From assembly GCA_045591265.1 (NCBI GenBank), contig JAZNSQ010000019.1:16067-80066 (forward strand): DNA of 64,000 nucleotides, read 5' to 3'. Shown here in pieces: positions 1-39,230 of the stretch; within the stretch, counting starts at the first letter, position 1, and each line of letters opens with the position of its first letter. Below the pieces are notes generated by a model. It was given only the letters and a program-made list of their open reading frames with translations, was not told the origin of the DNA and did no database searches. The position numbers were made by a program, and so were the translations under genes. The DNA is from Clostridia bacterium (GTDB lineage Bacteria > Bacillota > Clostridia > UMGS1883).

Positions 1-1
1 G

Positions 2-2164
2 ATGGAAAATAAATTAGCATTAGATGGTAAGACAATTGAATTATTTGAAAGATTTTCCGTGCGCGAAAAGGACATAAAAAGTCTTGTGAAATGCGATATG
101 AAAAGCCACAACCAGTATGGTAATGTGTATGTTTTACTGACGGACTCTTTTATCGCTACCATAGGCGAGGACGGAGAATTTTATAAAATAGAGGCAGATA
201 AGATAAAGGACATTTTTGTAAGAACGTATGTGTCCTCGGCAAGCCTTGTGCTTCTTTGTGATGAAGAGGAGATTGTGCTTGGTTACTTTTCTCTAAAATG
301 TGCAAAGGCAGTTGAAAAATTTGTTTTCGATGTTTTAAAAAGAAATGAAGAGAATCTACAAAAGTCCGCTTATATTCCGGAGGGTGACTCCGTAACAAAG
401 GGCAGGAAAAAGCTTTTTCTTCGCGTTCTTTCATACATCCCCAAATACAAAAAGGACCTGTTTTTAACAATACTCGTAATTCTTTCTTCAAGTCTTGTAA
501 ATATTGTTAATCCCTATCTTACCGGTACAGTCCTTTACGATAATGTATTAGGTGGAAAAGGACCTCTTTCAGGTAAAATATTTACACTTGTAGGGATGCT
601 TGTCATAATCTCCGCAGTAAGTGTGTTTTTAGGCATTATGCGCGGGCGAATCGGCGCAAACCTTTCGGGAAATATCGTTTACGATATAAAGACGGAGGTT
701 TTTGGTGCAATGCAAAAGCTCGGCATGCGCTTTTTTACCTCCAAAAGAACCGGCAATCTCTTAAATCGTGTAAACAGTGATGCGCTTGACATTCAGTACT
801 TTTTAAATGACGGATTGCCGATTTTTATAATTAATGCAATGACTATTTTAGGCGTGGGACTTGTTTTGTTTTTTACAAATCCGCTTCTTTCTGTCACGGT
901 TTTAGTGCCTGTTCCGCTTATAGCATTAATAATAAAGGCATCAACCCGCAAATTCAAAAAGCTTAAATGGCACACATGGCGCCGTAGCTCAAAGCTTAAT
1001 TCTCTTATAAACGATACACTTTTGGGAATAAGGGTTGTAAAGGCATTCGGCAGAGAAGAAAATGAGGTAAAGCGCTTTGAATATGCAAATGAAGAATTTT
1101 ACCAAAACAGACTTCGTGAGGGGATTGCGGCAGCAAAGGTATTTCCGTTTTTAAGCTGGATTATGTCATCGGCAGGCGTTATTGTCTGGGCACTTGGGGG
1201 TACTCAGGTACTTTCAGGCGCGCTTACTTTTGGTGAGCTTATGACTTTTGCAGGCTATCTTACTCTTCTTTACGAACCGGTAAACTTTATGGTAAGAACC
1301 TTTGACTGGTGGACAAATTGTATGAACAGTGCCCAAAGAATTTTTGAGGTGATTGACAGAACCCCCGATGTTCCGGAATCGGAAACTCCGGTGCATCTTG
1401 AAAAAATACGCGGTGAAATAGAACTTAAAAACGTCACCTTCGCGTATGAGCCGAACAGAAACGTGCTTAAAAATGTATCTTTAAAAATAAATGAGGGCGA
1501 AATGATTGGCCTTGTCGGGCACAGCGGTGCAGGGAAAAGCACTATTACAAACATCATAACAAGGCTTTATGATGTAAATGAGGGTGATGTACTGCTTGAC
1601 GGAGTAAACGTAAAAGACATTAAAAAGGATGACCTCCACTCAAATATCGGTATGGTACTTCAGGATACGTTTTTATTTTCAGGCACAATCCGTGAAAACA
1701 TCTCCTACGGAAAGCCTGACGCCACTTATGAAGAAATTGTGCAGGCTGCAAAAAGTGCATATGCGCATGAATTTATTATAAGACTTCCCGAGGGGTATGA
1801 AACAAAAATCGGGAAAAGAGGTATTAACCTTTCAGGCGGTGAAAAGCAAAGAATTTCAATCGCGCGTGCAATTCTTATGAATCCCAGAATTCTTATTCTG
1901 GATGAGGCGACTTCCTCGCTCGATACTGAAACGGAAAAGAAAATTCAGGATGCACTCGATAAACTAATTGAGGGCAGAACAACAGTTGCGATAGCACATC
2001 GTCTTTCCACTCTCCGTAATGCAGACCGCCTTGTAGTTGTCGAAAACGGAGAAATTGTTGAAAGCGGAACTCACGAGGAGTTATTTAATAAAGTAGACGG
2101 AGTGTATCAGCGTATGGCAAAAAAACAGCTTGAGGCACTTCATCTTTACAGTGAGGTAGATTAA
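2..2164 (+). CDS. ABC transporter permease/ATP-binding protein (exporter half-transporter) with ~150-aa N-terminal cytoplasmic extension
   Basis: Walker A GHSGAGKST, ABC signature LSGGEKQRISIARA, Walker B ILILDEATS, and a six-helix TMD precede them. The N-terminal ~150 aa is homologous to the N-terminus of the downstream ABC protein. The ATG is at nt 2, so the gene could be 5'-truncated by the window edge. Confidence 0.85.
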   Translation: MENKLALDGKTIELFERFSVREKDIKSLVKCDMKSHNQYGNVYVLLTDSFIATIGEDGEFYKIEADKIKDIFVRTYVSSASLVLLCDEEEIVLGYFSLKCAKAVEKFVFDVLKRNEENLQKSAYIPEGDSVTKGRKKLFLRVLSYIPKYKKDLFLTILVILSSSLVNIVNPYLTGTVLYDNVLGGKGPLSGKIFTLVGMLVIISAVSVFLGIMRGRIGANLSGNIVYDIKTEVFGAMQKLGMRFFTSKRTGNLLNRVNSDALDIQYFLNDGLPIFIINAMTILGVGLVLFFTNPLLSVTVLVPVPLIALIIKASTRKFKKLKWHTWRRSSKLNSLINDTLLGIRVVKAFGREENEVKRFEYANEEFYQNRLREGIAAAKVFPFLSWIMSSAGVIVWALGGTQVLSGALTFGELMTFAGYLTLLYEPVNFMVRTFDWWTNCMNSAQRIFEVIDRTPDVPESETPVHLEKIRGEIELKNVTFAYEPNRNVLKNVSLKINEGEMIGLVGHSGAGKSTITNIITRLYDVNEGDVLLDGVNVKDIKKDDLHSNIGMVLQDTFLFSGTIRENISYGKPDATYEEIVQAAKSAYAHEFIIRLPEGYETKIGKRGINLSGGEKQRISIARAILMNPRILILDEATSSLDTETEKKIQDALDKLIEGRTTVAIAHRLSTLRNADRLVVVENGEIVESGTHEELFNKVDGVYQRMAKKQLEALHLYSEVD

Positions 2165-2671
2165 ATGAGTGAATTGAACTACATAAATAAAGAAGATGCC
2201 CACTTTTACGAAAATGAAAGCGGACTTCTGATGCTTAAATATAAGGGTGAGGATTTTGGTCGCGTCAGCATAAGAAGAATATTCCCCCTGAAATTTTCGG
2301 AGGAGTACCTATCCGTTGCCCGCGAAAATTATGCAAGAACGGATAAAAATGACGAGATTGGGATTATCCGTGACCTTAAGGAATTTGATACGGAGCAGTC
2401 AGAAATTGTAAGAAGGGAACTTGACAGGCGCTACTTTCTTCCCGAAGTTACAAAGGTTATAAGTGTTACCGAGGAATTCGGAAACACTACCTGGAAAGTA
2501 GAAACAACGGCAGGCAGTACCGATTTTACGGTTGAGGATATGTCTGCAAACATAATAAAGCTGAGCGAAAACACAGTAATTCTCATTGACGTGTTCTCAA
2601 ACAGATATCTTTTTAAGGACATCAAAAAGCTTGGCGACAAAACGGTGCAGGCACTGGAAATCTGGATATAA
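2165..2671 (+). CDS. small soluble protein sandwiched between the two ABC half-transporter genes (possibly a DUF1854-type ABC-associated protein)
   Basis: 168-aa ORF starting 1 nt after the upstream stop. Its end overlaps the region just before the next ABC gene's start. There are no TM segments. The family assignment is from memory only. Confidence 0.55.
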   Translation: MSELNYINKEDAHFYENESGLLMLKYKGEDFGRVSIRRIFPLKFSEEYLSVARENYARTDKNDEIGIIRDLKEFDTEQSEIVRRELDRRYFLPEVTKVISVTEEFGNTTWKVETTAGSTDFTVEDMSANIIKLSENTVILIDVFSNRYLFKDIKKLGDKTVQALEIWI

Positions 2672-2684
2672 AGAAGGGAAAAAT

Positions 2685-4904
2685 ATGAAACGCGGTTTTC
2701 TTACAACTGAATATGAAAGTCAAATTAACCGCGTTTTATGTGGCGAAAAAATCATCTTTAACTGCGAGTATGATTTGACTAACAACGATAAATACACAGA
2801 GGGCATATTTATAGTAACTAAAAAAAGCATTGCCGTTTTTGAAAATGGCGAAATTAAAGTTCTTGCTTCTCTTAAAAACATTCAGAAAATCTGTGTGGGC
2901 GAATTAATAGGCTGCGGAATTTTAGAGGCTTTTATAAACGAAGAAAGAAAGATGCTTGCACGCTTTTCTATGCGTCATATTGAAGCCTTCAGTGCAGCGG
3001 CAGAGGTAATAAACAGTCTTATAAACGGCGAAACCGTAGGCGAGATAGAGTTTGAAGAGGAAGAGAAAATCTGCCCCAAATGCGGCGGCACCTTTATCCA
3101 CGGAACTAAAGTGTGCAGAAAATGCACAAGCAGATTCAGTATGATAAAAAGGCTCTGGCAACTTTCAAAGTCCTGCAAGGGGATATATGCCTTTTTGGTT
3201 ATATTCTTTTTGGTGGCAAGCGTTATAAATATACTTACGCCTCACCTTAAAAAGAATCTTGTAAATGACGTTTTGACAGTTAAAAACGCAAGCAAGGAAG
3301 CACTTTTAGGCGTTGTTTTATTTATGTTTGTGCTGGGGGTAATCACATATCTTTTAAATGTTTTAAGAGATATCGCGTCATCCAAGGCAAGTAATCTTTT
3401 AGTTAAAAATTTGCGTGGTGCAATATACGAAAAACTGCAAAGAATGCCGCTTGGCTATATAGAAGAAAAAAACGCCGGCGACCTTATGCAGCGTATAAAT
3501 AATGACACACAGCGTATACAAAGCTTCATTCAGGATATTTTTATTCTCGCCGTGGGCGAAGTTATTATGGCAGTGGCAATCGGGATAATAACCTTTTCCA
3601 TAAACTATGTTATGGCGCTTTTAATCTTTGTGCCGATTCCCCCGTCAATTTATATGATTTATAAAATCCGTCTCAGCATCGGCAGGCGCTACAGAAAACA
3701 GTGGCGCGTGATGGATGTTTTAACAAGCAGACTTACCGATGTTTTAAACGGAATTAATGTTGTAAAGGTCTTCGGGCGTGAAGATGACGAGACAAGAAGA
3801 TTTAAGGATACTGCCCGAAATGTTAGAAACCTGACCTGCAAAAACGAAAAATATGTGTATACAATCTTTCCTATAATTAAATTTATTATGGGTTTTGGCA
3901 GTTATTTTGTTCTCCTTTACGGCGGAAGCAAGGTAATAGACGGCTCTCTTTCAGTAGGTGAGCTTGTGCAGTTTTCGGCATACGGAAGCTATCTTTACAG
4001 TAAGCTTGAGTGGTTTAGTATGGTTCCCCGCCACTTTACTATGGCGATGGCAAGCTCAAGCCGTGTGTTTGAAATACTTGATGCGCCGGAGCCTGAGGAA
4101 AAAGAAACAATAAGCGATATAGAAAACATAAACGGCGAATTTGAATTTGACAATGTGTCTTTTGGATATAAAAGCTACAGAAGAGTGTTGCGCGGGATTA
4201 ATGAAAGCGTAAAAAAAGGCGAGATGATAGGTCTTGTCGGTCACAGCGGTGCAGGAAAAAGCACACTTATAAATCTTATTATGAAGCTTTATTCTCCAAA
4301 CAAGGGGAAAATTATGCTTGACGGAAAAAATCTTGATTCCTATAGCGATAAGGACTACAAAAGCACGCTTGGAATTGTCCTGCAGGAAAACTATCTGTTT
4401 AGCGGAACGATACTTGATAATATTGCTTACGCTGCACCTAATGCCACGTATGAAGATATTATTCTCGCTGCAAAAAAGGCAAGTGCACATGACTTTATAG
4501 TAAATCTTCCCGATGGATATAATACCTATGTCGGCGAAAAGGGGCACCGTCTTTCAGGCGGAGAAAGGCAAAGAATTTCAATAGCACGTGCAATCGCGGC
4601 AAACCCTAAAATTATAATTCTTGATGAGGCAACTGCCTCGGTAGATACGGAAACGGAAATAAAAATACAAGAGGCGCTTTTAAATGTAACGCGTAATAAA
4701 ACAGTTTTCGCGATAGCGCATCGCCTTTCTACCCTTAAAAATGCAGACAGACTTTTTGTGCTTGACGAAGGAAGGGTAAAGGAAAAAGGCACTCATAAAG
4801 AGCTGGAGGAGAGTGGCGGAATATATTCATCACTTCTTCGTGCACAGCAGGATATGGTAAAATCAAAAATAACGATAGACAATATAAGCTTAAAGGAGTT
4901 CTGA
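2685..4904 (+). CDS. ABC transporter permease/ATP-binding protein with N-terminal cytoplasmic domain and Cys4 zinc ribbon
   Basis: Start chosen at ATG 2685 (RBS GAAGGGAAAAAT). Motifs: CPKCGG...CRKC ribbon, TMD, Walker A GHSGAGKST, LSGGERQRISIARA, IILDEATAS. Confidence 0.85.
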   Translation: MKRGFLTTEYESQINRVLCGEKIIFNCEYDLTNNDKYTEGIFIVTKKSIAVFENGEIKVLASLKNIQKICVGELIGCGILEAFINEERKMLARFSMRHIEAFSAAAEVINSLINGETVGEIEFEEEEKICPKCGGTFIHGTKVCRKCTSRFSMIKRLWQLSKSCKGIYAFLVIFFLVASVINILTPHLKKNLVNDVLTVKNASKEALLGVVLFMFVLGVITYLLNVLRDIASSKASNLLVKNLRGAIYEKLQRMPLGYIEEKNAGDLMQRINNDTQRIQSFIQDIFILAVGEVIMAVAIGIITFSINYVMALLIFVPIPPSIYMIYKIRLSIGRRYRKQWRVMDVLTSRLTDVLNGINVVKVFGREDDETRRFKDTARNVRNLTCKNEKYVYTIFPIIKFIMGFGSYFVLLYGGSKVIDGSLSVGELVQFSAYGSYLYSKLEWFSMVPRHFTMAMASSSRVFEILDAPEPEEKETISDIENINGEFEFDNVSFGYKSYRRVLRGINESVKKGEMIGLVGHSGAGKSTLINLIMKLYSPNKGKIMLDGKNLDSYSDKDYKSTLGIVLQENYLFSGTILDNIAYAAPNATYEDIILAAKKASAHDFIVNLPDGYNTYVGEKGHRLSGGERQRISIARAIAANPKIIILDEATASVDTETEIKIQEALLNVTRNKTVFAIAHRLSTLKNADRLFVLDEGRVKEKGTHKELEESGGIYSSLLRAQQDMVKSKITIDNISLKEF

Positions 4905-4905
4905 A

Positions 4906-5790
4906 ATGAAGGATTTTAAAATCATTACCGACAGTAACTGTGACATCCCCGTAGAAACAGTTGAAAAATTAGGAATAAGGGTACTTCCTATTTCATTTAC
5001 ATTTGACGGAGAAAACTACTATCGTGACGGGATTGATATAACCCACGAGGAGTTTTATGAAAAGCTTACACAAAACGCTCAAATCCCGAAAACAACGCAG
5101 GTTACTCCAATAGAATATTTGGACGCTTATAACGAAGAATACGATAACGGGAATGATAACTTACTTGTAATTACCATTTCCTCACGCGGAAGCGGAATGC
5201 ACAGTAACGCCGTAATGATGGCAAATGAGATAATGCAGGAACGCGGTGGAAATATTACGGTTGTTGATTCCATGGGCTTTTCGTGCATTACGGGCGCAGG
5301 CGTTATAAAAGCCGTTAAAATGAAAAATGAGGGTAAAAGTAAAGAAGAAATCGTAGAATTTTTAAATGATTTCTTCACAACAGTTCACGCATATTTCCTT
5401 GTAGGTGACCTTGAGCATCTTAAAAAAGGCGGAAGAATAAACACTGCAACGCTTGTTTTAGCTAATATGCTTGACATTAAGCCAATTCTTACAATTAAAG
5501 ACGGCATAGTAGTACAAAAAGATAAAATCCGCGGAAGTAAGCGTATCCTTAAAAAGCTTATAGAAAATATTGAAGATGACGGCTACGAGCTTGACGGAAA
5601 AGCAGTGATGGTGGCAAGTGCGGGAAACAAGGAAAAATTTGAAGAGCTTAAGGAAGAGCTTACAAAGCTTTTCCCAAATGTAAAGGTAAACAGATGCTCT
5701 ATCGGGCCTATCGTTGGATGCCACGGCGGACCTGACCTTTGCGGAGTTATTTTTTCCGATAAATACGATTTAGATGACTTTGAGGAATAA
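4906..5790 (+). CDS. DegV family fatty-acid-binding protein
   Basis: N-terminus MKDFKIITDSNCDIP and overall DegV pattern; 294 aa. Confidence 0.8.
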   Translation: MKDFKIITDSNCDIPVETVEKLGIRVLPISFTFDGENYYRDGIDITHEEFYEKLTQNAQIPKTTQVTPIEYLDAYNEEYDNGNDNLLVITISSRGSGMHSNAVMMANEIMQERGGNITVVDSMGFSCITGAGVIKAVKMKNEGKSKEEIVEFLNDFFTTVHAYFLVGDLEHLKKGGRINTATLVLANMLDIKPILTIKDGIVVQKDKIRGSKRILKKLIENIEDDGYELDGKAVMVASAGNKEKFEELKEELTKLFPNVKVNRCSIGPIVGCHGGPDLCGVIFSDKYDLDDFEE

Positions 5791-5792
5791 TT

Positions 5793-6647
5793 ATGTGGAT
5801 AGCAGAAAACTGGAAAGACTACGAGTGTATAGATACTGCAAGCGGTGAAAAGCTTGAGCGTTGGGGTAGCATTATCCTCCGCCGTCCTGACCCGCAGGTA
5901 ATCTGGGACGAAAAGTCAGTGCCAAAAAAATGGGAAAGTGCTGATGCATGGTATCACCGTTCACAAAGCGGTGGCGGAAAATGGGAATATAAAAAGGAAA
6001 TCCCTCAAAAATGGCAGATAAAATATAAAGACCTGACCTTTAATATTACTCCCACAGGCTTTAAGCATACAGGCCTTTTTCCCGAGCAGGCAGTAAACTG
6101 GGACTATATGATGGAAAAAATTAAAAAAGCACAAAGACCGATAAAGGTGCTTAACCTTTTTGCCTATACGGGCGGTGCAACTATCGCATGCGCCAAGGCA
6201 GGAGCAATGGTAACACACGTTGACGCGTCTAAAGGCATGGTTTTATGGGCAAAGGAAAATGCACAATCAAGCAATCTGGGGAATGCGCCTATCCGCTACC
6301 TTGTTGACGACTGTATGAAATTCGTTGAACGCGAAATAAGAAGGGGGAATAAGTATGATGCTATACTTATGGACCCACCGTCATACGGGCGCGGACCCGG
6401 GGGAGAAGTGTGGAAAATGGAGGACTCCATAGCGTCCTTTGTAAAAAGAACAGCGCTTCTTTTAAGTGATAATCCCCTTTTCTTTATAATTAACTCATAC
6501 ACAACGGGGCTTTCCCCTACAGTACTTACAAACCTTATGAAAATAAGCCTCCCTAAAGGGCGTGTGGAGGCAAGCGAAATAGGACTTAACATTACAGGCT
6601 CATCCATGGTGCTCCCTTGCGGTGCAACGGGAAGATGGGAAGGATAA
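5793..6647 (+). CDS. class I SAM-dependent methyltransferase (RlmI/YwbD-like catalytic domain)
   Basis: Motifs LNLFAYTGGATIACAKAGA (SAM binding) and DPPSYGRG (motif IV). Confidence 0.7.
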   Translation: MWIAENWKDYECIDTASGEKLERWGSIILRRPDPQVIWDEKSVPKKWESADAWYHRSQSGGGKWEYKKEIPQKWQIKYKDLTFNITPTGFKHTGLFPEQAVNWDYMMEKIKKAQRPIKVLNLFAYTGGATIACAKAGAMVTHVDASKGMVLWAKENAQSSNLGNAPIRYLVDDCMKFVEREIRRGNKYDAILMDPPSYGRGPGGEVWKMEDSIASFVKRTALLLSDNPLFFIINSYTTGLSPTVLTNLMKISLPKGRVEASEIGLNITGSSMVLPCGATGRWEG

Positions 6648-6648
6648 A

Positions 6649-7512
6649 ATGAACATTATCGAAGCAGAAAACCTTTTCTTTAAGTATGATGAGGAGGGAA
6701 ACTCCTACGTGCTTAAGGATTTAAACTTAAATATAGAAAAAGGAAGCTTTACCGCAATAATCGGTCATAACGGAAGCGGGAAAAGCACCTTTGCAAAGCA
6801 TCTTAATGCAATACTGCTTCCAAGTGGCGGAAGTGTGACGGTTTGCGGGATAGATACTTCCGACAAAAAGAAAATCTACGAGCTTCGCAAAAATGCAGGG
6901 ATGGTATTTCAAAACCCCGACAACCAAATTGTTGCAACTATTGTAGAAGAAGACGTTGCTTTCGGTTTAGAGAATATCGGTATTGAAAGAGAAGAAATGC
7001 ATTCGCGCGTTAAAGAAGCACTTACGGCAGTTGATATGTATGAATTTCGCACTCGCGCACCGCATCTTCTTTCAGGCGGGCAAAAGCAGCGCGTTGCAAT
7101 AGCAGGAATTCTTGCGATGAACCCCATGTGCATTATTCTTGATGAGCCAACCGCAATGCTTGACCCTCTTGGTCGCCGTGAGGTGCTTTCAACCATAAAA
7201 AAGCTAAATCGGGAAAAAGGCATAACGATAGTACTCATCACTCACTATATGGATGAAGCGTGCAGTGCCGACAGGGTGGTTGTGATGAATAAGGGGGAAA
7301 TTTCGCTTGACGCATCCCCAAAAGAAATATTTAAGGACGAGGAAGCACTTAAAAAACTCGGGCTTGACGTTCCGCAGAGTGTTGCTCTTTTAAACAGACT
7401 TAAGGAAGAAGGATTTAATCTTTCAGATAGTGCGCTTACTCCCGAAGAATGTGCACAGGAGATACTAAAGCTTTTTAAGAAAAATTCCGAAGGTAAGGAA
7501 AACCCAAAATGA
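6649..7512 (+). CDS. ecfA1: energy-coupling factor transporter ATPase EcfA1
   Basis: Walker A GHNGSGKST, LSGGQKQRVAIAGILA, ILDEPTAMLD. Start at ATG 6649 after GGAAGGA. It lies in the conserved ecfA1-ecfA2-ecfT-truA order. Confidence 0.9.
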   Translation: MNIIEAENLFFKYDEEGNSYVLKDLNLNIEKGSFTAIIGHNGSGKSTFAKHLNAILLPSGGSVTVCGIDTSDKKKIYELRKNAGMVFQNPDNQIVATIVEEDVAFGLENIGIEREEMHSRVKEALTAVDMYEFRTRAPHLLSGGQKQRVAIAGILAMNPMCIILDEPTAMLDPLGRREVLSTIKKLNREKGITIVLITHYMDEACSADRVVVMNKGEISLDASPKEIFKDEEALKKLGLDVPQSVALLNRLKEEGFNLSDSALTPEECAQEILKLFKKNSEGKENPK

Positions 7513-8351
7513 TAAAACTTAAGAATATATCACATTTATATAATAACGGGCCTGATATGACTCCTTCCGTAACAGATATAAACCTTGAAATTAAAGAGGG
7601 CGAATATATCGGAATTGCGGGCCACACGGGAAGCGGAAAAACAACAGTTGCCCAAATTCTTGCAGGGCTCATTTTGCCACAGAGCGGTGAAATAGAAGTA
7701 AGCGGCGAGGCATCTTGCGATTTTAAAAAAACTGCAAGAATGCTGCGTGAAAAGGTTGGCATCGTTTTTCAGTATCCCGAGCATCAGCTTTTTGAAGAAA
7801 CGGTTTATAAAGATATTGCCTTTGGACCTAAAAATAAAAAGCTTTCGGAAAAAGAAATTGACGAATGTGTCAGAGAAAGTGCGCGTCTGACTCATCTTGA
7901 CGAATCACTTTTTGACAAGTCCCCGTTTGAGCTTTCGGGCGGTCAGAAAAGGCGCGTTGCAATAGCAGGCGTGCTTGCAACTAAACCTAAGGTTCTTATT
8001 TTAGATGAGCCTGCTGCAGGACTTGACCCATTAGGCAGAAAAAAGCTTTTTTCGGAGCTTAACCAGATACGAAAATTAAATAACACCGCGATTGTCCTTA
8101 TCTCTCACAGTATGGAGGATTTGGCGGAAAATGTTGAAAGAATAGTAGTTTTAAATAAAGGTAAAAAGGTGGCAGATGCACCGGTAAAAGAGATTTTTTC
8201 AAACTATTCTCTTTTAAAGGAGAGCGGGCTTGATGTGCCTGAAATTACCCGCATTGCGCACCTTATCCGTAAAGGCGGAGTAGATTTAGGCCACGATATC
8301 TATACAATAAATGATGCCGTGCGCGAAATAAAAAAGGTGCTGGGGGTGTAG
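7509..8351 (+). CDS. ecfA2: energy-coupling factor transporter ATPase EcfA2
   Basis: GHTGSGKTT, LSGGQKRRVAIAGVLA, ILDEPAAGLD. ATGA overlap with ecfA1. Confidence 0.9.
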   Translation: MIKLKNISHLYNNGPDMTPSVTDINLEIKEGEYIGIAGHTGSGKTTVAQILAGLILPQSGEIEVSGEASCDFKKTARMLREKVGIVFQYPEHQLFEETVYKDIAFGPKNKKLSEKEIDECVRESARLTHLDESLFDKSPFELSGGQKRRVAIAGVLATKPKVLILDEPAAGLDPLGRKKLFSELNQIRKLNNTAIVLISHSMEDLAENVERIVVLNKGKKVADAPVKEIFSNYSLLKESGLDVPEITRIAHLIRKGGVDLGHDIYTINDAVREIKKVLGV

Positions 8352-8354
8352 AGT

Positions 8355-9161
8355 ATGCTAAAGGACATTACAATCGGTCAGTATTATAATTCAAATTCCC
8401 CCATTCACGCTCTTGACGCGCGCACAAAAATTCTGTGGACCATTTTTTACATGGCGCTCCTCTTTATGATTAATTCGCCTTTAATGTATGCAGTGATAAT
8501 TCTTTTTACGCTTTTTGTGATAAAGCTTTCAAAAATACCTTTAAAGTTTATTTTAAGAGGAATAAAGCCTATTATGGTGCTTGTAGTATTTACCGCAGTC
8601 ATAAATCTTTTTATGACCCCGGGCGAAAATGTGCTTCTTTCCTTCGGGATATTTAAAATAACAACGCAAGGCGTGCTTCTCGCAATAAAAATGGTTGTAA
8701 GGGTGGTGCTTCTCATTGTCGGAACTTCACTTCTTACTCTTACCACAACGCCCACAGTTCTTACAGGCGCGATAGAGGTTTTGCTTTCTCCTTTAAAAAA
8801 ATTAGGCGTTCCCGTAAGCATTTTTGCTATGATGATGGGGATTGCACTTCGATTTATCCCTACTTTAATGGACGAGATAGACAAAATAATGAAAGCGCAG
8901 ATTTCCAGAGGTGCAGATTTTGAAAGCGGGAATATGCTTGCAAGGGTAAAAGCCATAATTCCTATACTTATACCGCTTTTTGTAAGTGCGTTTCGGCGCG
9001 CGGATGAGCTTTCGGTTGCAATGGAATCAAGATGCTATAACAGTGAAGCTCAAAGAACAAGCTACAGAAGTTATGAATTCAGAAAAAACGATTATATATC
9101 CTTTTTGGTTTCGTTCTTACTTATCGGGGTTATGATAATTATAAAGGTTGTGCAAAGATGA
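8355..9161 (+). CDS. ecfT: energy-coupling factor transporter transmembrane subunit EcfT
   Basis: Polytopic membrane protein immediately after ecfA2; synteny. Confidence 0.85.
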   Translation: MLKDITIGQYYNSNSPIHALDARTKILWTIFYMALLFMINSPLMYAVIILFTLFVIKLSKIPLKFILRGIKPIMVLVVFTAVINLFMTPGENVLLSFGIFKITTQGVLLAIKMVVRVVLLIVGTSLLTLTTTPTVLTGAIEVLLSPLKKLGVPVSIFAMMMGIALRFIPTLMDEIDKIMKAQISRGADFESGNMLARVKAIIPILIPLFVSAFRRADELSVAMESRCYNSEAQRTSYRSYEFRKNDYISFLVSFLLIGVMIIIKVVQR

Positions 9162-9892
9162 AATATAAGCTGACGTTATCTTATGACGGCACCAATTACC
9201 ACGGGTGGCAGTTTCAGAAAAACGGAATAACAATTCAGGAAGTTTTGGAAAATGCTCTTTCCAAAATCTTTAACTGCAATATAGCCGTTACGGGCTGTTC
9301 ACGCACCGATGCAAGAGTTCACGCAGAAAAATACGTGTGCTCTTTTGAAGGGGAAACCACAATTCCCACTTCGAAAATTGCAACCGTCATAAACACAAAA
9401 CTACCCGAGGATATCCGCGCGTATCACTGTGAAGAAGAAAAAGAAGACTTTAACGCAAGGTTTGACACCAAAAAAAAGGCGTATGAATACAGAATTTTAA
9501 ACAGGGAGGTAGCCGACCCCATTCTTCGCAACTACGTCTGGCACTATCCTATAAAGCTTGATGTAAAAAAGATGCAAAAAGCCGCGAAAATAATTCAGGG
9601 CAAGCGTGATTTTGCCTGCTTTTGCGCGGCAGGATCAAGTGCTAAAACAACGGTGAGAAATCTTATGCACCTAAGCGTAAAAAAAGAGGGGGATATAATC
9701 ACCATTCGTGCCGAGGCAGATGGGTTTTTATATAATATGGTGCGCATAATTGTAGGCACTCTTATCTATATTGGTAACGGCAAGCTAAAAGTGCAGGACC
9801 TTAAAGAACTTATGGAAAATAAAGACCGGCGTCTTATGGGCGTTACAGCACCGCCCGAGGGACTTAGGCTGGTGGAGGTTTGCTATGAATAA
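9158..9892 (+). CDS. truA: tRNA pseudouridine(38-40) synthase TruA
   Basis: MKYKLTLSYDGTNYHGWQFQ N-terminus and catalytic RTDARVHA motif; follows ecfT as in Firmicutes. Confidence 0.9.
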   Translation: MKYKLTLSYDGTNYHGWQFQKNGITIQEVLENALSKIFNCNIAVTGCSRTDARVHAEKYVCSFEGETTIPTSKIATVINTKLPEDIRAYHCEEEKEDFNARFDTKKKAYEYRILNREVADPILRNYVWHYPIKLDVKKMQKAAKIIQGKRDFACFCAAGSSAKTTVRNLMHLSVKKEGDIITIRAEADGFLYNMVRIIVGTLIYIGNGKLKVQDLKELMENKDRRLMGVTAPPEGLRLVEVCYE

Positions 9893-11012
9893 GGAAAAAA
9901 TTTTGAAGGTATTAAAAAATACTGCAGTAATAATTGTAATAATTTCTCTGTTTACAATCATATACTATCAGAACAGAGACAGGGCAATCGGAAAAATCTT
10001 AAGTGGAGAAAACCAAAAAAGCAAAGAAGAGCAAAGCATTATGGATGGCCTTGTAGACGCCGGCATATGCAAAATTGGAGAAAAGATAGGTATAATTACA
10101 ACTCACAGCTACAGTGTAATTGATGAAAATGCAAAGACAACGGATAGCGAAATAGCTCTTTCGGAACCAGTAATTTATTCAGACAGTGACTATGCAGTTT
10201 TTTATTCTGCTGATTCAAAAGAGGCAACAGTTTCTAAAAATGAGAGAGTCCACTATACAATAAATGCCGAAAACCGCATTATAAAGGCAAAGGTGAACAG
10301 AAACGGCTATGGCATAATTGTAACTGAAAAAGAGGGCTACACCAGTGAAATAGTAGTCTACAACAGACTTGGTGAGGCGATTTTCAGGTGGGACTTAAGC
10401 AGCAGTGAGCTAATTGATGCAGACCTTAATTCAGATAATAACAAGCTTATTTTAAGCGTGCTCGAGTCAAATGAAAAGAAAATGTGCACAAAAGTAATGC
10501 TTATAGACATTACAAGCGCAAAGGTGGAAAACAGCGAGTATTTTGATAATGAGGCGATATATAAGGTTGAATTTAACAGAAATTCAACGTGCTATGGCCT
10601 TGGAAGCAGTAAGCTTTTTTACTTTAATTCTGACGGAACGGTTAAATGGGAAAAAAGCTACAAAGGGAAAACTCTTCTCAAGGCAGATTTAACAAATCCC
10701 GATATGGTAGTTTTAGCTTATTCAGGCGCGGGAAGCGGAATTAAGGGAAACTCAACAGAGCTTGAGGTTGTATCAAGACTTGGAAAGGTCACAGCCTCAA
10801 AAACGATTGACGGCCTTGTAGAAGACATCAGCGTCAACAAAGCAAAAATTGCCGTGGCAATAGGAAAAAATGTTGAAATATACACGCAGGCACTTAAGCT
10901 TAAGGAAACACTTATGTCAAAGTCCGTTATAGAAAAAATAGAGTTTTTTGAAAATGATAACTATTTATTTGTGCTGGGAAACACCGGCGGAGATATTTTA
11001 AAGGTTAAATAA
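9885..11012 (+). CDS. membrane-anchored hypothetical protein (N-terminal TM helix, ~340-aa extracytoplasmic beta-rich domain)
   Basis: Hydrophobic segment AVIIVIISLFTIIYY; repetitive beta-strand-like segments; no recognisable catalytic motif. Confidence 0.5.
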   Translation: MNKEKILKVLKNTAVIIVIISLFTIIYYQNRDRAIGKILSGENQKSKEEQSIMDGLVDAGICKIGEKIGIITTHSYSVIDENAKTTDSEIALSEPVIYSDSDYAVFYSADSKEATVSKNERVHYTINAENRIIKAKVNRNGYGIIVTEKEGYTSEIVVYNRLGEAIFRWDLSSSELIDADLNSDNNKLILSVLESNEKKMCTKVMLIDITSAKVENSEYFDNEAIYKVEFNRNSTCYGLGSSKLFYFNSDGTVKWEKSYKGKTLLKADLTNPDMVVLAYSGAGSGIKGNSTELEVVSRLGKVTASKTIDGLVEDISVNKAKIAVAIGKNVEIYTQALKLKETLMSKSVIEKIEFFENDNYLFVLGNTGGDILKVK

Positions 11013-11022
11013 GGGGTGTAAA

Positions 11023-11568
11023 ATGGGCGATATCATTATCCTTCTGGTTATTGTTTTAAGCAGTTTTATAGGGATGAAAAGAGGTCTCTTAAAAACACTC
11101 ACGGGCGTACTTTCAACCGTAATGAGTGTAGTTTTAAGTATGGTTTTTTACAGACCTGTTTCAAAAATCCTCGAAAGCTCGCCTCTTATGCTCGTTATAG
11201 AAAAAAAGACGGAGGAATTTTTCTTAAGAGGAGATGCTTCAATTCTTTCAAAGGTAGGGGAGCTTACAAAGGATAAGGCAAGCGCTCTTGTAATGGATGC
11301 AATAAGCTTTATTTTAGTAATTGTGCTTGTAAAAATAATTCTTCTGTTTCTTATAAAAGCAGTTAGATTTACCGCAAAATTACCCGTAATCAAAGAGTTA
11401 AATGCCCTTTTGGGCGGTGTATTGGGTTTTGTTGGCGGAGTCATAATTTGCTACATATTAATTGAGGTTTCAGATGCCTTGTCAGTAGGCGGAATTCTTA
11501 AGGAGCTTGACGGTGCATTTGATAAATCCATCCTCGCCTCGTTTTTCTACAAAATAGATATTATTTAG
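11023..11568 (+). CDS. cvpA: CvpA family membrane protein
   Basis: MGDIIILLVIVLSSFIGMKRGLLKTL N-terminus typical of CvpA; 4 TM helices. Confidence 0.65.
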   Translation: MGDIIILLVIVLSSFIGMKRGLLKTLTGVLSTVMSVVLSMVFYRPVSKILESSPLMLVIEKKTEEFFLRGDASILSKVGELTKDKASALVMDAISFILVIVLVKIILLFLIKAVRFTAKLPVIKELNALLGGVLGFVGGVIICYILIEVSDALSVGGILKELDGAFDKSILASFFYKIDII

Positions 11569-11581
11569 GAAGTGACATTTT

Positions 11582-11979
11582 ATGATAAAGGTGGACAAGA
11601 CCATAAAAAAAGAGACAAGCTATATAATAGTTGTATCAGGAATTTTAAGTGTGCTTATGCAAGCTGTCTTTTTAATTATAAATAAATGGGATTACACAGT
11701 TTTACTCGGAAATATTTTATCTCTTTGTATATCCGTTTTAAATTTCTTTTTTATGGGAATAACAATACAAAAAGCACTGGATATGGAAGAAGGGGACGCA
11801 AAAAAACTTATGCGCGCTTCGCAAAGCATAAGAAATCTTTTAATGTTTGCCATATTAGCCGTGGGAGTAATACTTCCTATGTTTAATACGGTGGCACTCA
11901 TTGTTCCTTTGTTCTTCTCAAGAATAGCCGTCTTTTTAAGACCGCTTATAAAAAAGGACGGAAAGGATGTGAATAAAAA

Positions 11980-11983
<4 letters not shown>
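11582..11983 (+). CDS. atpI: ATP synthase protein I (AtpI/AtpZ-like small membrane protein)
   Basis: 133-aa hydrophobic protein directly upstream of atpB, overlapping its start. Confidence 0.6.
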
Positions 11984-13169
<1,186 letters not shown>

Positions 13170-35243: not shown

Positions 35244-38200
35244 ATGAAGAAATTTTTAAGCTTATTATTAATAACTATAATGTTATTTTCAACATTGATT
35301 AATATACTGCCAAGTACCGCTTTCGCGGAAAGTAGCGGGGCTTACTGGTACTATGGAGATTACTATGAAGGTAGTCCTTACACTATTTACCTATGCGGTA
35401 ATGGGACAATAGATCTCCGCGAGATTGATTGGGAAAGTTACCAATCCATTGTGATAGAGGATGGGGTTACTGTTGTAGGTGAGGCGGGGGTAAATGCCAT
35501 ATACTCATTTAACAGGGGCGTTCTGACAATTAGTGGAACGGGATCGACCTATTTTTTCCACGGACACTGGCAGGATTGGTCACGATGGAGTGATAAAATA
35601 ACAAAATATGTTTTCAACGAGGGCATTACTGAAATTGAAGAAGATACTGTAATAGGAGAAAATGTAACAAGCGTAGTTTTGCCAAGAAGTCTGGCAGTTA
35701 TGGACACAGCCTGGAACGGCGTTTTTAACTTAACACCTAACCTAACCGATGTTTATTATAGAGGAACGGAAGAAGAATGGAATAACGTAAAAATGGGAGC
35801 GGGCAGTGCACATATTGAAGGAGTGACAATGCATTATAATTATGGTTCAACAAACACAACTAACTCTACCTCTGATATGAAATCATATGCGCAAGAAGCG
35901 GGAATATCATATGGCGACTATTATTATAATATTTTTACACAATATGCCACAATAGCAAAGGACGATTCTACAGAAATGATGTTTTCCGCGAATGTTATTA
36001 CTAATGGTGAAAGTCATAGCAATTTAAAAATGTATCTTACTCAAGGTCCAGACAAGATGTTGCCTGTTGATACCTGGGCTAAGACCCCTATAAAACCAGG
36101 GGAATTTTTTGAAGCAGATAGAAAAATCTATTTGCTTTTACAAAATACCGCTACAGGTCAATCATCCTCAAAACTCACAAAATTAAAGGTTGTTTCTGAA
36201 AATATTAAAAATGACGTTATATGGGAACAAGATGATGTTGACGAGAAATTTTCTTTCAAATTGGGAAATATGATAAGCTTTACTATACCAGATACAGTGC
36301 CTGTGTTTGGTGGAGCTGAGGTTGGAATGGATTTGGACTTTATTCCCATATCTGTTGAATATGCACATCCTGATAAACTAAATATAGTTTTTGGCACTGA
36401 AATAGCGAGTCAAAAAGGTGAAAAAGACAGGGTGTGGGGTGATGTGAAATACTTTAAAGATTTCTCTTTCGAAAATTATAAAAAGGATTTTAAAAAAGCC
36501 ATTTCTAAGAGTAATCGTTCAATAAAGCAGCTTAGAAATGATTATAAAATGACAAATAAAGTTCCGTTGAAAAGTTTTAAAAATATAAGCGGAAATGTTG
36601 ATGTTGCTGGTTATGCAGAAATGAAATACATAAATGGCCAATGGCGATTTGTTGAAGGTATGCTTGGTCTTGATGCAGAAATCGGCTACAAATATCAGGG
36701 CAATAATGTTATTTATTTTATTCCCATCACATACAGTATAGGTGGAAACGTTGGTGCAGGTATTGATGGTGTTATGAAAAATCTTAGTGCGGATACATTT
36801 ACACCACAATTTGAGGGTTATTTAAATGGTAGAATATCTGCTACTATTGGTGGGGGTATAGGTGCAAGCTTTGCTAAACTTGTATATGCCGATGGCACAG
36901 GAACTCTTAATGTAAGAAAGTCGCTTAATGACGAATACTTAAAAAGTTGGGTAGATGCTCACGCTGACTTTGTTGTATGTGAGGTAGGTTTCTTTGCCCT
37001 CTTAAGAAAGACTTTTGCGCAAGGAGAGTGGTTAATATACGAAACGGGTAATCCTGATGGTCTTATACCATATAATACTATGTCTTTAATGAGTATTAAT
37101 GATATTTATTCAAATTATGATAAAGATACGGTTTACGAATTTACTCCACGAAACGAAGAAGAGACTACCTGGCTTGGCGATTCAGCACCAATTTCATTAT
37201 TCGAAGCTGAATATACAGGGCAAGATGCAAAACTTTTAAGTGAAAATGTCTATTATAGTGCAGAACCACAAATAGATTTTATTAATGGAAAAAAGGTTAT
37301 GGTATGGGTGTCTGATAACAAAGATAGAGATATCTATAATAAAACCATGCTTGTATATTCCATATATGACGAATCAAGCGATACATGGTCTGCACCCTTG
37401 GCTGTAAGTGATGATGGAACCTCAGATACATATCCTAATTTTAATAATGGATATGTTGTATGGCAAAACAATAACTCTATGATGGACGAAAACACTACTA
37501 TTTCAGGATACGCTAAAGACTGTGATATTTGTATTGCAAAATTTAATGGAACAGGCTTTGATGAAGCTATAAAAGTAACAGATAATCAGATAATGGATTC
37601 AATGCCTATGGTCTTTGCTGATGAAAATGGTGTTAATGTGGTGTGGATTACCAATACCGAAAATGATATATTGGGGACAACTGGAAAAAATAGTATTTAT
37701 TTTAAGAAACTTGGTGAGACAGAACAAATTATAGAAGATAATCTTAATGCTATTACAAGTTTATCTTTAGGAAATATTAATAATGAAGTAAGCATTGCAT
37801 ATTCATTTGATGAAGATAATGATTTGGCTACAATTGATGACAGAGATATTTATGTGTATAGTGATGGAAACACAATAAACTTAAATAATGATGACATTAT
37901 TAATTCAAATCCTTTGTTCTCTGGGAATAAGTTGTATTGGTATAGCGATAATAATATAGAATACACTTCGGACTTGAGTACGGTAAACCAAATGTTTAAC
38001 TCTACAGGCATCTCTACTGACCAATTTAATGTGTATACAAATAATAATGGTAAAAGTGCTGTTTTTTGGACAGAATCAGATGAAACGGCTACTGAGGTCT
38101 ATGTATCATTATTTGAAAATAATAAATGGAGCAATCCGATAAAATTAACTGATTTAAATATTAAAATAAAATCTCCTCATGGTATTTTAGATGGAAATGG

Positions 38201-39230
38201 AAATATAGCAGTTTCATTTACTGATATTGCAGTAGATGGTGAAAATATTATTGCAAACTTGTACGTGCTTGATGCAATTCCATCTTATGATATATCAGTT
38301 GCAAATGTGGAATTTAATGAAAACAACTTAGTTGAAAATTCGGATTTTCCAATTTCTGTTGACGTCGTAAATGATGGGGAAAAAGATATAAATGAATATC
38401 AAATAACTATTTCTGACGGACATGGAGTAAATAATACATATACTTTTAGTGATAAACTAAAGGCTGGTACTGCAGTAACACAAACCATACAATACAGTGT
38501 TCCAACTACAATGAGCAAACAAACAATAAGCATAAGTGTTACAATAACTGATGGTGAAGAATTTGATGTTTCAAATAATAGTTGTGATTTGATTTTGGGT
38601 AATGAAAGAATATCCCTTTCTAAAATTGAATTACATGAAGCGGGAGAAAGGTATCAAATAATATCTGAAATTATAAATGAAGGCTTTGCAGACTCTCCTG
38701 ATATTACTGTTAATTTAAGAAAAGACTCCGTAGATGGAACTATCATACACAAAAGATATATTTCTTCCTTATCTTCACAAGGCAGTAGCGAAATTGTTTT
38801 TGATGAGCCAATAGCTGGTATAGAATACGAGGATGGAATAAAGAAACTCTATGTAACTGTTGAATGTAATGATTCAGTAGAGGACTCTGAATATGTTTTA
38901 TTACAAGAAATGCAGGCAGATAAAGAATTTGAGCAAATGATTGTCTTAACCAACTATAATTCTGATACTAAAATTCTTAACAGTAATGCTATCGTAACGA
39001 ATAATACTGATACAAAACAAGATTTTGTAATGATTTTCGCTGTGTATGACGGGGATAGATTGCTCGGCATAGATTATAGTGACGGCAGTGTTTTGCCATA
39101 TAATGAAACATCTGTAGATGGATTTGTTAGTTTAAGTGATTATAAAACTCAATATACAGTACGTTCGTTTTTGTGGCAGGATTTAGAAAAAATTATGCCA
39201 CTATGTGAAAAAGATGAATATTTACAATAA
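35244..39230 (+). CDS. large secreted cell-surface protein (signal peptide, BspA-type LRR-like N-terminal module, CARDB-like repeats)
   Basis: Signal peptide MKKFLSLLLITIMLFSTLINILPSTAFA. The LRR_5/BspA-like block ends in YYRGTEEEWNNVKM. C-terminal Ig-like CARDB-type segments read ISVDVVNDGEKDINEYQITISDG. There is no LPxTG. The gene looks more AT-rich than its flanks by eye. Confidence 0.75.
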   Translation: MKKFLSLLLITIMLFSTLINILPSTAFAESSGAYWYYGDYYEGSPYTIYLCGNGTIDLREIDWESYQSIVIEDGVTVVGEAGVNAIYSFNRGVLTISGTGSTYFFHGHWQDWSRWSDKITKYVFNEGITEIEEDTVIGENVTSVVLPRSLAVMDTAWNGVFNLTPNLTDVYYRGTEEEWNNVKMGAGSAHIEGVTMHYNYGSTNTTNSTSDMKSYAQEAGISYGDYYYNIFTQYATIAKDDSTEMMFSANVITNGESHSNLKMYLTQGPDKMLPVDTWAKTPIKPGEFFEADRKIYLLLQNTATGQSSSKLTKLKVVSENIKNDVIWEQDDVDEKFSFKLGNMISFTIPDTVPVFGGAEVGMDLDFIPISVEYAHPDKLNIVFGTEIASQKGEKDRVWGDVKYFKDFSFENYKKDFKKAISKSNRSIKQLRNDYKMTNKVPLKSFKNISGNVDVAGYAEMKYINGQWRFVEGMLGLDAEIGYKYQGNNVIYFIPITYSIGGNVGAGIDGVMKNLSADTFTPQFEGYLNGRISATIGGGIGASFAKLVYADGTGTLNVRKSLNDEYLKSWVDAHADFVVCEVGFFALLRKTFAQGEWLIYETGNPDGLIPYNTMSLMSINDIYSNYDKDTVYEFTPRNEEETTWLGDSAPISLFEAEYTGQDAKLLSENVYYSAEPQIDFINGKKVMVWVSDNKDRDIYNKTMLVYSIYDESSDTWSAPLAVSDDGTSDTYPNFNNGYVVWQNNNSMMDENTTISGYAKDCDICIAKFNGTGFDEAIKVTDNQIMDSMPMVFADENGVNVVWITNTENDILGTTGKNSIYFKKLGETEQIIEDNLNAITSLSLGNINNEVSIAYSFDEDNDLATIDDRDIYVYSDGNTINLNNDDIINSNPLFSGNKLYWYSDNNIEYTSDLSTVNQMFNSTGISTDQFNVYTNNNGKSAVFWTESDETATEVYVSLFENNKWSNPIKLTDLNIKIKSPHGILDGNGNIAVSFTDIAVDGENIIANLYVLDAIPSYDISVANVEFNENNLVENSDFPISVDVVNDGEKDINEYQITISDGHGVNNTYTFSDKLKAGTAVTQTIQYSVPTTMSKQTISISVTITDGEEFDVSNNSCDLILGNERISLSKIELHEAGERYQIISEIINEGFADSPDITVNLRKDSVDGTIIHKRYISSLSSQGSSEIVFDEPIAGIEYEDGIKKLYVTVECNDSVEDSEYVLLQEMQADKEFEQMIVLTNYNSDTKILNSNAIVTNNTDTKQDFVMIFAVYDGDRLLGIDYSDGSVLPYNETSVDGFVSLSDYKTQYTVRSFLWQDLEKIMPLCEKDEYLQ

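Follow-up and report, generated by a model that had tools for sequence, protein, structure and literature searches.

Introduction

The closest described relatives of the locus reported here are ATP-binding cassette (ABC) exporters linked to DUF1854 proteins and to the cyanophycin synthetase gene cphA. In Acidovorax and Cupriavidus, Price et al. (bioRxiv 10.1101/072470) found the genes for DUF1854, an ABC transporter and cphA to be cofit, and they put DUF1854 forward as a subunit of an amino-acid-polymer exporter. They also noted the fusions pointed out by Pfam, which remarks on linkage or fusion of DUF1854 to ABC transporters. Theirs was the only report found in the literature on DUF1854/PF08909, cyanophycin export and PH-like ABC domains, and cofitness with cphA-like genes is the sole functional hint for DUF1854-linked exporters. 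Here we analyze such a locus in a 64,000-nucleotide (nt) stretch of DNA from a Clostridia bacterium (GenBank assembly GCA_045591265.1, contig JAZNSQ010000019.1, positions 16,067 to 80,066), hereafter the window. Three closely packed genes on the + strand of window 1-4904, which we call ABC1, DUF1854 and ABC2, make up a self-contained module (window 2-4904). It is predicted to encode a heterodimer of the DUF1854-associated family of type IV (B-family) ABC exporters, with export as the presumed direction of transport.

Within NCBIfam, the three proteins are all matched best by the "cyanophycin metabolism-associated" models NF052233 (ABC) and NF052234 (DUF1854). ABC1 and ABC2 score 581.8 and 538.6 bits against NF052233, below its equivalog cut-off of 880, and the DUF1854 protein scores 65.7 bits against NF052234, below the cut-off of 150. 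The alignment of ABC2 to NF052233 begins at residue 16, so that it takes in the N-terminal domain described below.

Two motif-complete half-transporters enclose a DUF1854 gene

Coordinates of the genes and their domains are collected in Table 1. ABC1 and ABC2 each have a six-helix transmembrane domain (TMD) followed by a motif-complete nucleotide-binding domain (NBD), as do type IV exporter half-transporters. In Pfam searches ABC_membrane covers residues 153-426 (E 1.9e-45) and ABC_tran residues 489-638 (E 4.2e-36) of ABC1, and the same families cover residues 170-438 and 502-651 of ABC2. Over 557 amino acids (aa) the cores share 39% identity. Alignment showed both NBDs to be canonical in Walker A, Q-loop, signature, Walker B-Glu and H-loop His, with the motifs GHSGAGKST, LSGGE(K/R)QR, I(L/I)ILDEAT and AHRLST found in ABC1 and ABC2 alike. 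A degenerate ATP site, the mark of asymmetric heterodimers of the BmrCD/TM287-288 type, is present in neither protein, and both ATP sites look catalytically competent.

The solved cores nearest to the window proteins are the multidrug-type exporters ABCB1, TM287/288, Sav1866, TmrAB and BmrA, with TM_0288 as the top solved half-transporter match (E 1.5e-97); MsbA models of NCBIfam also give high scores for the exporter core. Type IV exporters of the Sav1866/MsbA type, which include the closest solved cores, have cytoplasmic N-termini, and this established topology places the N-terminal domains and the cysteine ribbon described below on the cytoplasmic side, next to the elbow helices.

ABC1 is full length: a near-identical metagenomic contig (locus L002) carries the same 720-aa gene, which is separated by a spacer of 120 nt from an upstream gene of its own that differs from the window. 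The ABC1 stop codon TAA (2162-2164) directly adjoins the DUF1854 start codon ATG (2165), which is preceded by GAGG; this junction would allow translational coupling of DUF1854 to ABC1, as the preliminary description of this DNA had it. ABC2 starts at ATG 2685; a ribosome-binding site (GAAGGG) precedes this codon by 8 nt, and 23 of 23 orthologues start at an equivalent Met. Mechanical open reading frame (ORF) calling instead placed the start at TTG 2586, which would create an 86-nt overlap with DUF1854; the orthologue starts and the ribosome-binding site favor ATG 2685 and show that the 2586-2684 extension is not coding.

The N-terminal domains are homologous and predicted to be PH-like

Both half-transporters carry a soluble domain ahead of the TMD (N1 in ABC1, N2 in ABC2). 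The preliminary description had noted that these domains are mutually alignable, and pairwise BLAST aligned exactly the strings it quoted (26% identity over 69 aa, E 0.004), each on a full half-transporter with TMD and NBD. HHalign comparison of N1 and N2 profiles built from 23 orthologues each gave a probability of 96% and an E of 3.9e-9 over 99 columns, pairing N1 residues 19-120 with N2 residues 17-119. The two domains are therefore homologous rather than low-complexity linkers. The same description had also considered that the N-terminal regions could be linkers with no fold, and the homologous profiles together with the fold predicted for the ABC2 domain speak against this.

No Pfam family covers the N-terminal domains, which gave only weak zinc-ribbon matches. 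In a Pfam search with 20 ABC2 N-terminal domains, no PH-type family (bPH_1 to bPH_6, YokE-like) occurred either in the table of matches for member 1 or among the 25 families matched most often at E<=1, and no such family was found at E<=0.1 in the full-length window proteins. The window proteins have no Pfam match to Peptidase_C39 either. No Protein Data Bank (PDB) chain was matched by the sequence of residues 1-150, and the N2 profile run against the PDB gave chance-level zinc-ribbon matches only.

An AlphaFold2 (AF2) model of ABC2 residues 1-175, computed with 60 distant homologues, has a predicted local distance difference test score (pLDDT) of 91.8 and a predicted template-modelling score (pTM) of 0.74. 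It consists of a helix, seven strands (residues 23-95), a capping helix (96-113), a Cys-rich segment and the elbow helices. The model thus has the antiparallel beta-sandwich of seven strands, capped by an alpha-helix at its C-terminal end, that characterizes PH-like folds; the nearest known domains of this kind are the TFIIH p62/Tfb1 PH domain, GRAM/myotubularin and bacterial PH domains such as PDB 3b77. The top structural match is the peptide-binding TFIIH p62 PH domain. The model supports an N-terminal module that is PH-like at the level of predicted fold and belongs to no named PH sequence family, in agreement with the PH-like fold proposed in the preliminary description.

We also note a sub-threshold match of ABC2 residues 81-150 (window 2925-3134) to TackOD1 (Thaumarchaeal output domain 1; E 2.8e-4, 20.9 bits vs a cut-off of 32). 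This match, found in 5 of 20 orthologues, takes in the final strands of the PH-like domain as well as the capping helix and zinc ribbon.

A Cys4 ribbon precedes the TMD of ABC2 and was lost from ABC1

Between its PH-like domain and the elbow helix ABC2 carries CPKC...CRKC (C130/C133/C144/C147), a CxxC-10-CxxC motif that is invariant in 20 of 20 aligned orthologues and whose cysteines are >=90% conserved in the 60 distant homologues. In full-length distant matches CxxC...CxxC is found at the equivalent place in 25 of 25, with Walker A in 23 of these 25. Weak matches to DZR/Zn_ribbon Pfam families (DZR_2) were obtained for all 20 ABC2 orthologues examined, and the Cys-rich segment of the AF2 model has a pLDDT of 78-92 with little regular secondary structure.

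No ABC1 orthologue has the Cys4 motif (0/23). The first ABC protein of distant loci with the same gene order carries the ribbon in four of five cases, as does the single ABC protein of Ralstonia, so the ribbon is ancestral to the family and was lost by ABC1 of this clade rather than gained by ABC2. A Cys4 ribbon before the TMD of ABC2 had been recognized correctly from the outset, but the notion that the second gene adds it does not hold.

The DUF1854 protein is a conserved partner of ABC exporters

The soluble protein encoded between the two ABC genes, for which DUF1854 membership had been suggested beforehand, indeed belongs to this family: it scores 102.8 bits against PF08909 (cut-off 26.8) and spans profile positions 3-128 of 130. 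In 13 homologues, each 53-75% identical to the window protein, 47 positions are invariant. Its AF2 model, based on 13 sequences, has a pLDDT of 79 and a pTM of 0.51 and shows two beta-rich halves with a helix at the end of each. A sequence search of the PDB found no DUF1854 relative. We rejected an origin of DUF1854 by divergence from the N-terminal PH-like domain, since HHalign against N1 and N2 was negative, and likewise an internal duplication, since its two halves did not match each other in HHalign (probability <1% in both cases).

DUF1854 adjoins or is fused to an ABC exporter, being flanked by the two ABC genes in the window and in complete triads and fused in locus L032, where 7779-10571 encodes a single 930-aa protein of PH-like domain, zinc ribbon, TMD, NBD and DUF1854 with no second ABC gene nearby. 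Linkage of DUF1854 to the transporter is obligate, and fusion to it can occur behind the NBD. The natural fusion in L032 argues that DUF1854 may act physically on the transporter. One DUF1854 homologue (L033, 6593-7354) reaches 253 aa and has K/E/D-rich low-complexity insertions in its N-terminal half (~residues 40-65 and 105-155).

Gene order is conserved among close and distant relatives

Close relatives were collected by scanning one genome per species, which gave 28 loci with DUF1854 identities of 48-75%, mostly in metagenome-assembled genomes (MAGs) of Clostridia/Oscillospiraceae and several from ruminant guts. The order ABC1-DUF1854-ABC2 is complete in all 19 Clostridia MAG loci with enough sequence, and eight truncated loci are consistent with it.

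To reach distant relatives we searched 1.84 billion representatives exhaustively by phmmer with ABC2 residues 1-160 and obtained 183 matches at E<=1e-3. Among the 150 matches listed, the match starts within about 135 residues of the protein N-terminus, bar a few multi-stretch, ribbon-only matches. When the isolated domains were used in a word-indexed homologue search, N1 matched a single fragment and N2 had no match. We looked up six distant full-length matches, whose N-terminal domains are 20-38% identical; five lie in the same ABC1-DUF1854-ABC2 order, and the sixth is the L032 fusion protein. In these five triads an ABC protein of 749-795 aa, a DUF1854 protein of 176-253 aa and an ABC protein of 712-759 aa are encoded between unrelated flanks. 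Co-occurrence of the three genes, which the preliminary description had named as a check, is therefore borne out by the 19 complete Clostridia triads and by five of the six distant loci.

By bit score the position-1 ABC proteins are nearer to ABC1 and the position-3 proteins nearer to ABC2 in all five distant loci, with a marginal preference in the position-3 protein of L034 (398 vs 394 bits). Because the distant position-1 and position-3 genes score with ABC1 and ABC2, respectively, both the duplication of the ABC gene and the gene order are old.

Other arrangements were also encountered. On a Ralstonia chromid, cphA and cphA' are divergent from one 768-aa ABC gene and DUF1854; this ABC protein matches a hidden Markov model (HMM) of N2 (E 2e-9) and carries CPTC...CPQC, and so has the same PH-like and ribbon N-terminus. 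In Armatimonadota MAGs (L027, 3151-5564; L028, 2310-4720) DUF1854 stands behind a single ABC exporter whose ORF opens ~35 residues before the TMD, and no N-terminal-domain HMM match for the PH-like/zinc-ribbon domain was found anywhere in either locus. With this arrangement there are therefore at least four DUF1854-ABC architectures. Inspection of the flanks of related loci showed no cphA.

Neighboring genes vary outside the close clade

The gene that follows ABC2 after a 1-nt spacer encodes DegV (E 3.6e-78), and DegV is next in all 22 close loci with downstream sequence. A methyltransferase gene follows DegV in the close loci, except in three short contigs that end within DegV (L013, L019, L023), and most close loci run on into two ABC-ATPase genes corresponding to ecfA1/ecfA2. 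DegV is absent from beside the triad in all distant loci and in Ralstonia. As a part of the module DegV was rejected, since its adjacency is limited to the close clade; it is a lineage-specific neighbor outside the conserved module. The observation that DegV directly follows ABC2 was accurate.

Downstream neighbors in the window are housekeeping genes (ecfA1A2T, truA, ATP synthase, ftsK, RNase R), and ABC1, DUF1854 and ABC2 may be the first genes of a long operon with them. Operon boundaries were inferred from gene packing alone; a promoter/terminator scan of 1-12000 found sites no commoner than in shuffled sequence. At the junctions read in window 4906-11568 (+), genes are separated by 1-3 nt spacers or overlap. 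The largest ORF of the window (35244-39230, +) encodes 1328 aa and has neither an annotation nor a Pfam match at E<=1e-3.

Table 1. Window coordinates of the exporter module, its domains and the genes that follow it
Feature	Coordinates	Strand	Remarks
ABC1	2..2164	+	720-aa half-transporter: N-terminal PH-like domain, TMD, NBD; without ribbon
ABC1 N-terminal cytoplasmic domain	2..376	+	residues 1-125; homologous to ABC2 PH-like domain
ABC1 TMD	458..1279	+	type IV exporter fold, 6 transmembrane helices; PF00664, profile 1-273 of 274
ABC1 NBD	1466..1915	+	canonical motifs; PF00005, profile 1-137 of 137
DUF1854 protein	2165..2671	+	soluble, 168 aa; PF08909 E 1.6e-29
ABC2	2685..4904	+	739-aa half-transporter: PH-like domain, predicted Cys4 ribbon, TMD, NBD
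ABC2 PH-like domain	2706..3023	+	residues 8-113: N-terminal helix, seven strands, C-terminal capping helix (predicted)
ABC2 predicted Cys4 zinc ribbon	3066..3134	+	C130, C133, C144, C147; directly before elbow helix
ABC2 TMD	3192..3998	+	PF00664, profile 3-271 of 274
ABC2 NBD	4188..4637	+	canonical motifs; PF00005, profile 1-137 of 137
DegV	4906..5790	+	
S-adenosylmethionine (SAM) methyltransferase	5793..6647	+	
ecfA1	6649..7512	+	
ecfA2	7509..8351	+	
ecfT/CbiQ	8355..9161	+	
truA	9158..9892	+	
DUF5711	9885..11012	+	
CvpA	11023..11568	+	

Proposed mechanism and alternatives

We propose that DUF1854 is a third, cytoplasmic subunit of the transporter, whose synthesis would keep pace with that of ABC1 owing to the abutting stop and start codons of the two genes. 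The PH-like domain of ABC2 would be tied to the elbow helix by the Cys4 ribbon, and both PH-like domains together with DUF1854 may form a cytoplasmic platform beneath the transporter that recognizes cargo and couples cargo binding to ATP-driven export. The platform would play a role like that of the C39 or C39-like domains of PCAT/HlyB exporters or of the Wzt C-terminal domain in O-antigen export. By analogy with the cphA-linked proteobacterial relatives, the cargo would most plausibly be a cytoplasmically made peptide-like or poly-amino-acid polymer. We infer complex formation, the role as cargo adaptor, the identity of the cargo and the direction of transport, and we favor a cargo adaptor because relatives are linked to a polymer synthetase. 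For the identity of the module and this mechanism taken jointly we see about an even chance. The regulated or substrate-gated export that the preliminary description suggested would likewise be conjectural.

Several points weigh against such an adaptor. The window proteins score well under the NCBIfam equivalog cut-offs, and function is therefore not transferable from the cphA-linked subfamily. Neither a cyanophycin-synthetase domain nor another biosynthetic gene was found downstream among ten large ORFs, a scan that did not extend to smaller ORFs in the remaining 59 kb, and the flanks of the distant loci have nothing in common, so that a cargo is unsupported here. The Armatimonadota exporter without the PH-like/zinc-ribbon domain shows that the two accessory elements are separable.

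Some of these points would suit a regulatory gate. In such a gate the PH-like domains and DUF1854 would handle no cargo but respond to a metabolite or signal in the cytoplasm by turning the ATPase on or off, in the manner of the C-terminal regulatory domains of MalK, MetN and ModC. DUF1854 occurs without the PH-like/zinc-ribbon domain, the variable, housekeeping flanking genes would fit a general regulated pump, and in the L032 fusion DUF1854 lies C-terminal to the NBD, which is where known regulatory domains of ABC ATPases lie. However, the accessory parts match no ligand-binding family in Pfam, trans-inhibition domains are known chiefly from importers, and the beta-proteobacterial pair is genetically tied to a polymer synthetase rather than to a regulator. 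We therefore regard such a gate as unlikely, if with a real chance of being correct.

An exporter of lipids or lipid-linked substrates could also be considered, with the PH-like domains docking on anionic head groups of the inner leaflet and feeding lipid to the transporter, and with DegV as a hint at lipid metabolism. DegV is a fatty-acid-binding protein and the constant neighbor of ABC2 in close loci, but it is not beside the triad in any of the five distant loci or in Ralstonia. The high MsbA model scores of the core likewise speak for a flippase, but they are generic to B-family exporters, and the best structural match of the ABC2 domain is a PH domain that binds peptide. Altogether a flippase has a small chance. 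Smaller still, and in our opinion very slight, is the chance of an ordinary multidrug or peptide efflux pair whose N-terminal domains and DUF1854 are dispensable and whose gene order is mere inherited synteny. The core is nearest to multidrug-type exporters, as noted above, yet at N-domain identities down to 20-30%, within unrelated flanks and even as a fusion, the PH-like domain, Cys4 motif and DUF1854 are all retained, as is the gene order, and DUF1854 has 47 invariant positions among 13 homologues.

DUF1854-linked ABC exporters are found in Clostridia (in many MAGs from animal guts), Betaproteobacteria and Armatimonadota. To what is known of them our analysis adds a predicted N-terminal module of PH-like domain and zinc ribbon that is ancestral to the family, the loss of the ribbon in ABC1 along with the presence of two canonical ATP sites, and the recognition that the heterodimer of Clostridia is old and that the order of its genes about DUF1854 is fixed. 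It also shows that neither DegV nor cphA belongs to the conserved module. If it is true that the accessory parts recognize cargo, they would constitute a new solution to substrate selection by ABC exporters. A bolder form of the cargo-adaptor proposal is that the PH-like/zinc-ribbon domain and DUF1854 are a new cargo-recognition platform that defines a distinct class of exporters for non-ribosomal amino-acid or similar cytoplasmic polymers, and that the heterodimer of gut Clostridia places such a polymer in the cell envelope, its synthetase being encoded elsewhere in the genome. We consider this extended proposal improbable, although slightly less so than the lipid flippase.

Comparison with known systems

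The window unit is a member of a catalogued, experimentally uncharacterized family of ABC exporters and not a new kind of system. The preliminary description was right that its layout differs from that of BmrCD/YheIH-type exporters, given the extra N-terminal domains and two canonical ATP sites, but the layout is not unrecognized: Pfam remarks on the link of DUF1854 to ABC transporters, NCBIfam models a sister subfamily, and Price et al. proposed the subunit role. Like TM287/288, BmrCD, TmrAB, EfrCD and YheIH, the window has two adjacent genes for type IV half-transporters. Those exporters lack an N-terminal soluble domain and a third subunit, whereas the window pair has such domains and, in DUF1854, a putative third subunit, and they typically have one degenerate ATP site; both sites of the window pair are canonical.

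PCAT1 and other bacteriocin exporters (C39 peptidase) and HlyB (C39-like) resemble the window proteins in carrying a cytoplasmic N-terminal domain before a type IV TMD. Their domain is a papain-like C39 fold, in contrast to the predicted PH-like domain and zinc ribbon of the window, and compared with PCAT/HlyB exporters the window module has no adjoining gene for cargo, a membrane-fusion protein or an outer-membrane factor.

The greatest likeness is to the cyanophycin-associated pair (Ralstonia wenshanensis KOL96_03340/03345; Cupriavidus RR42_RS04420), which shares the PH-like domain and Cys4 ribbon before the TMD as well as a type IV core with DUF1854 immediately downstream. The pair has one ABC gene, presumably encoding a homodimer, and adjoins cphA/cphA', whereas the window has two old paralogues around DUF1854 and a module without cphA among the ORFs scanned.

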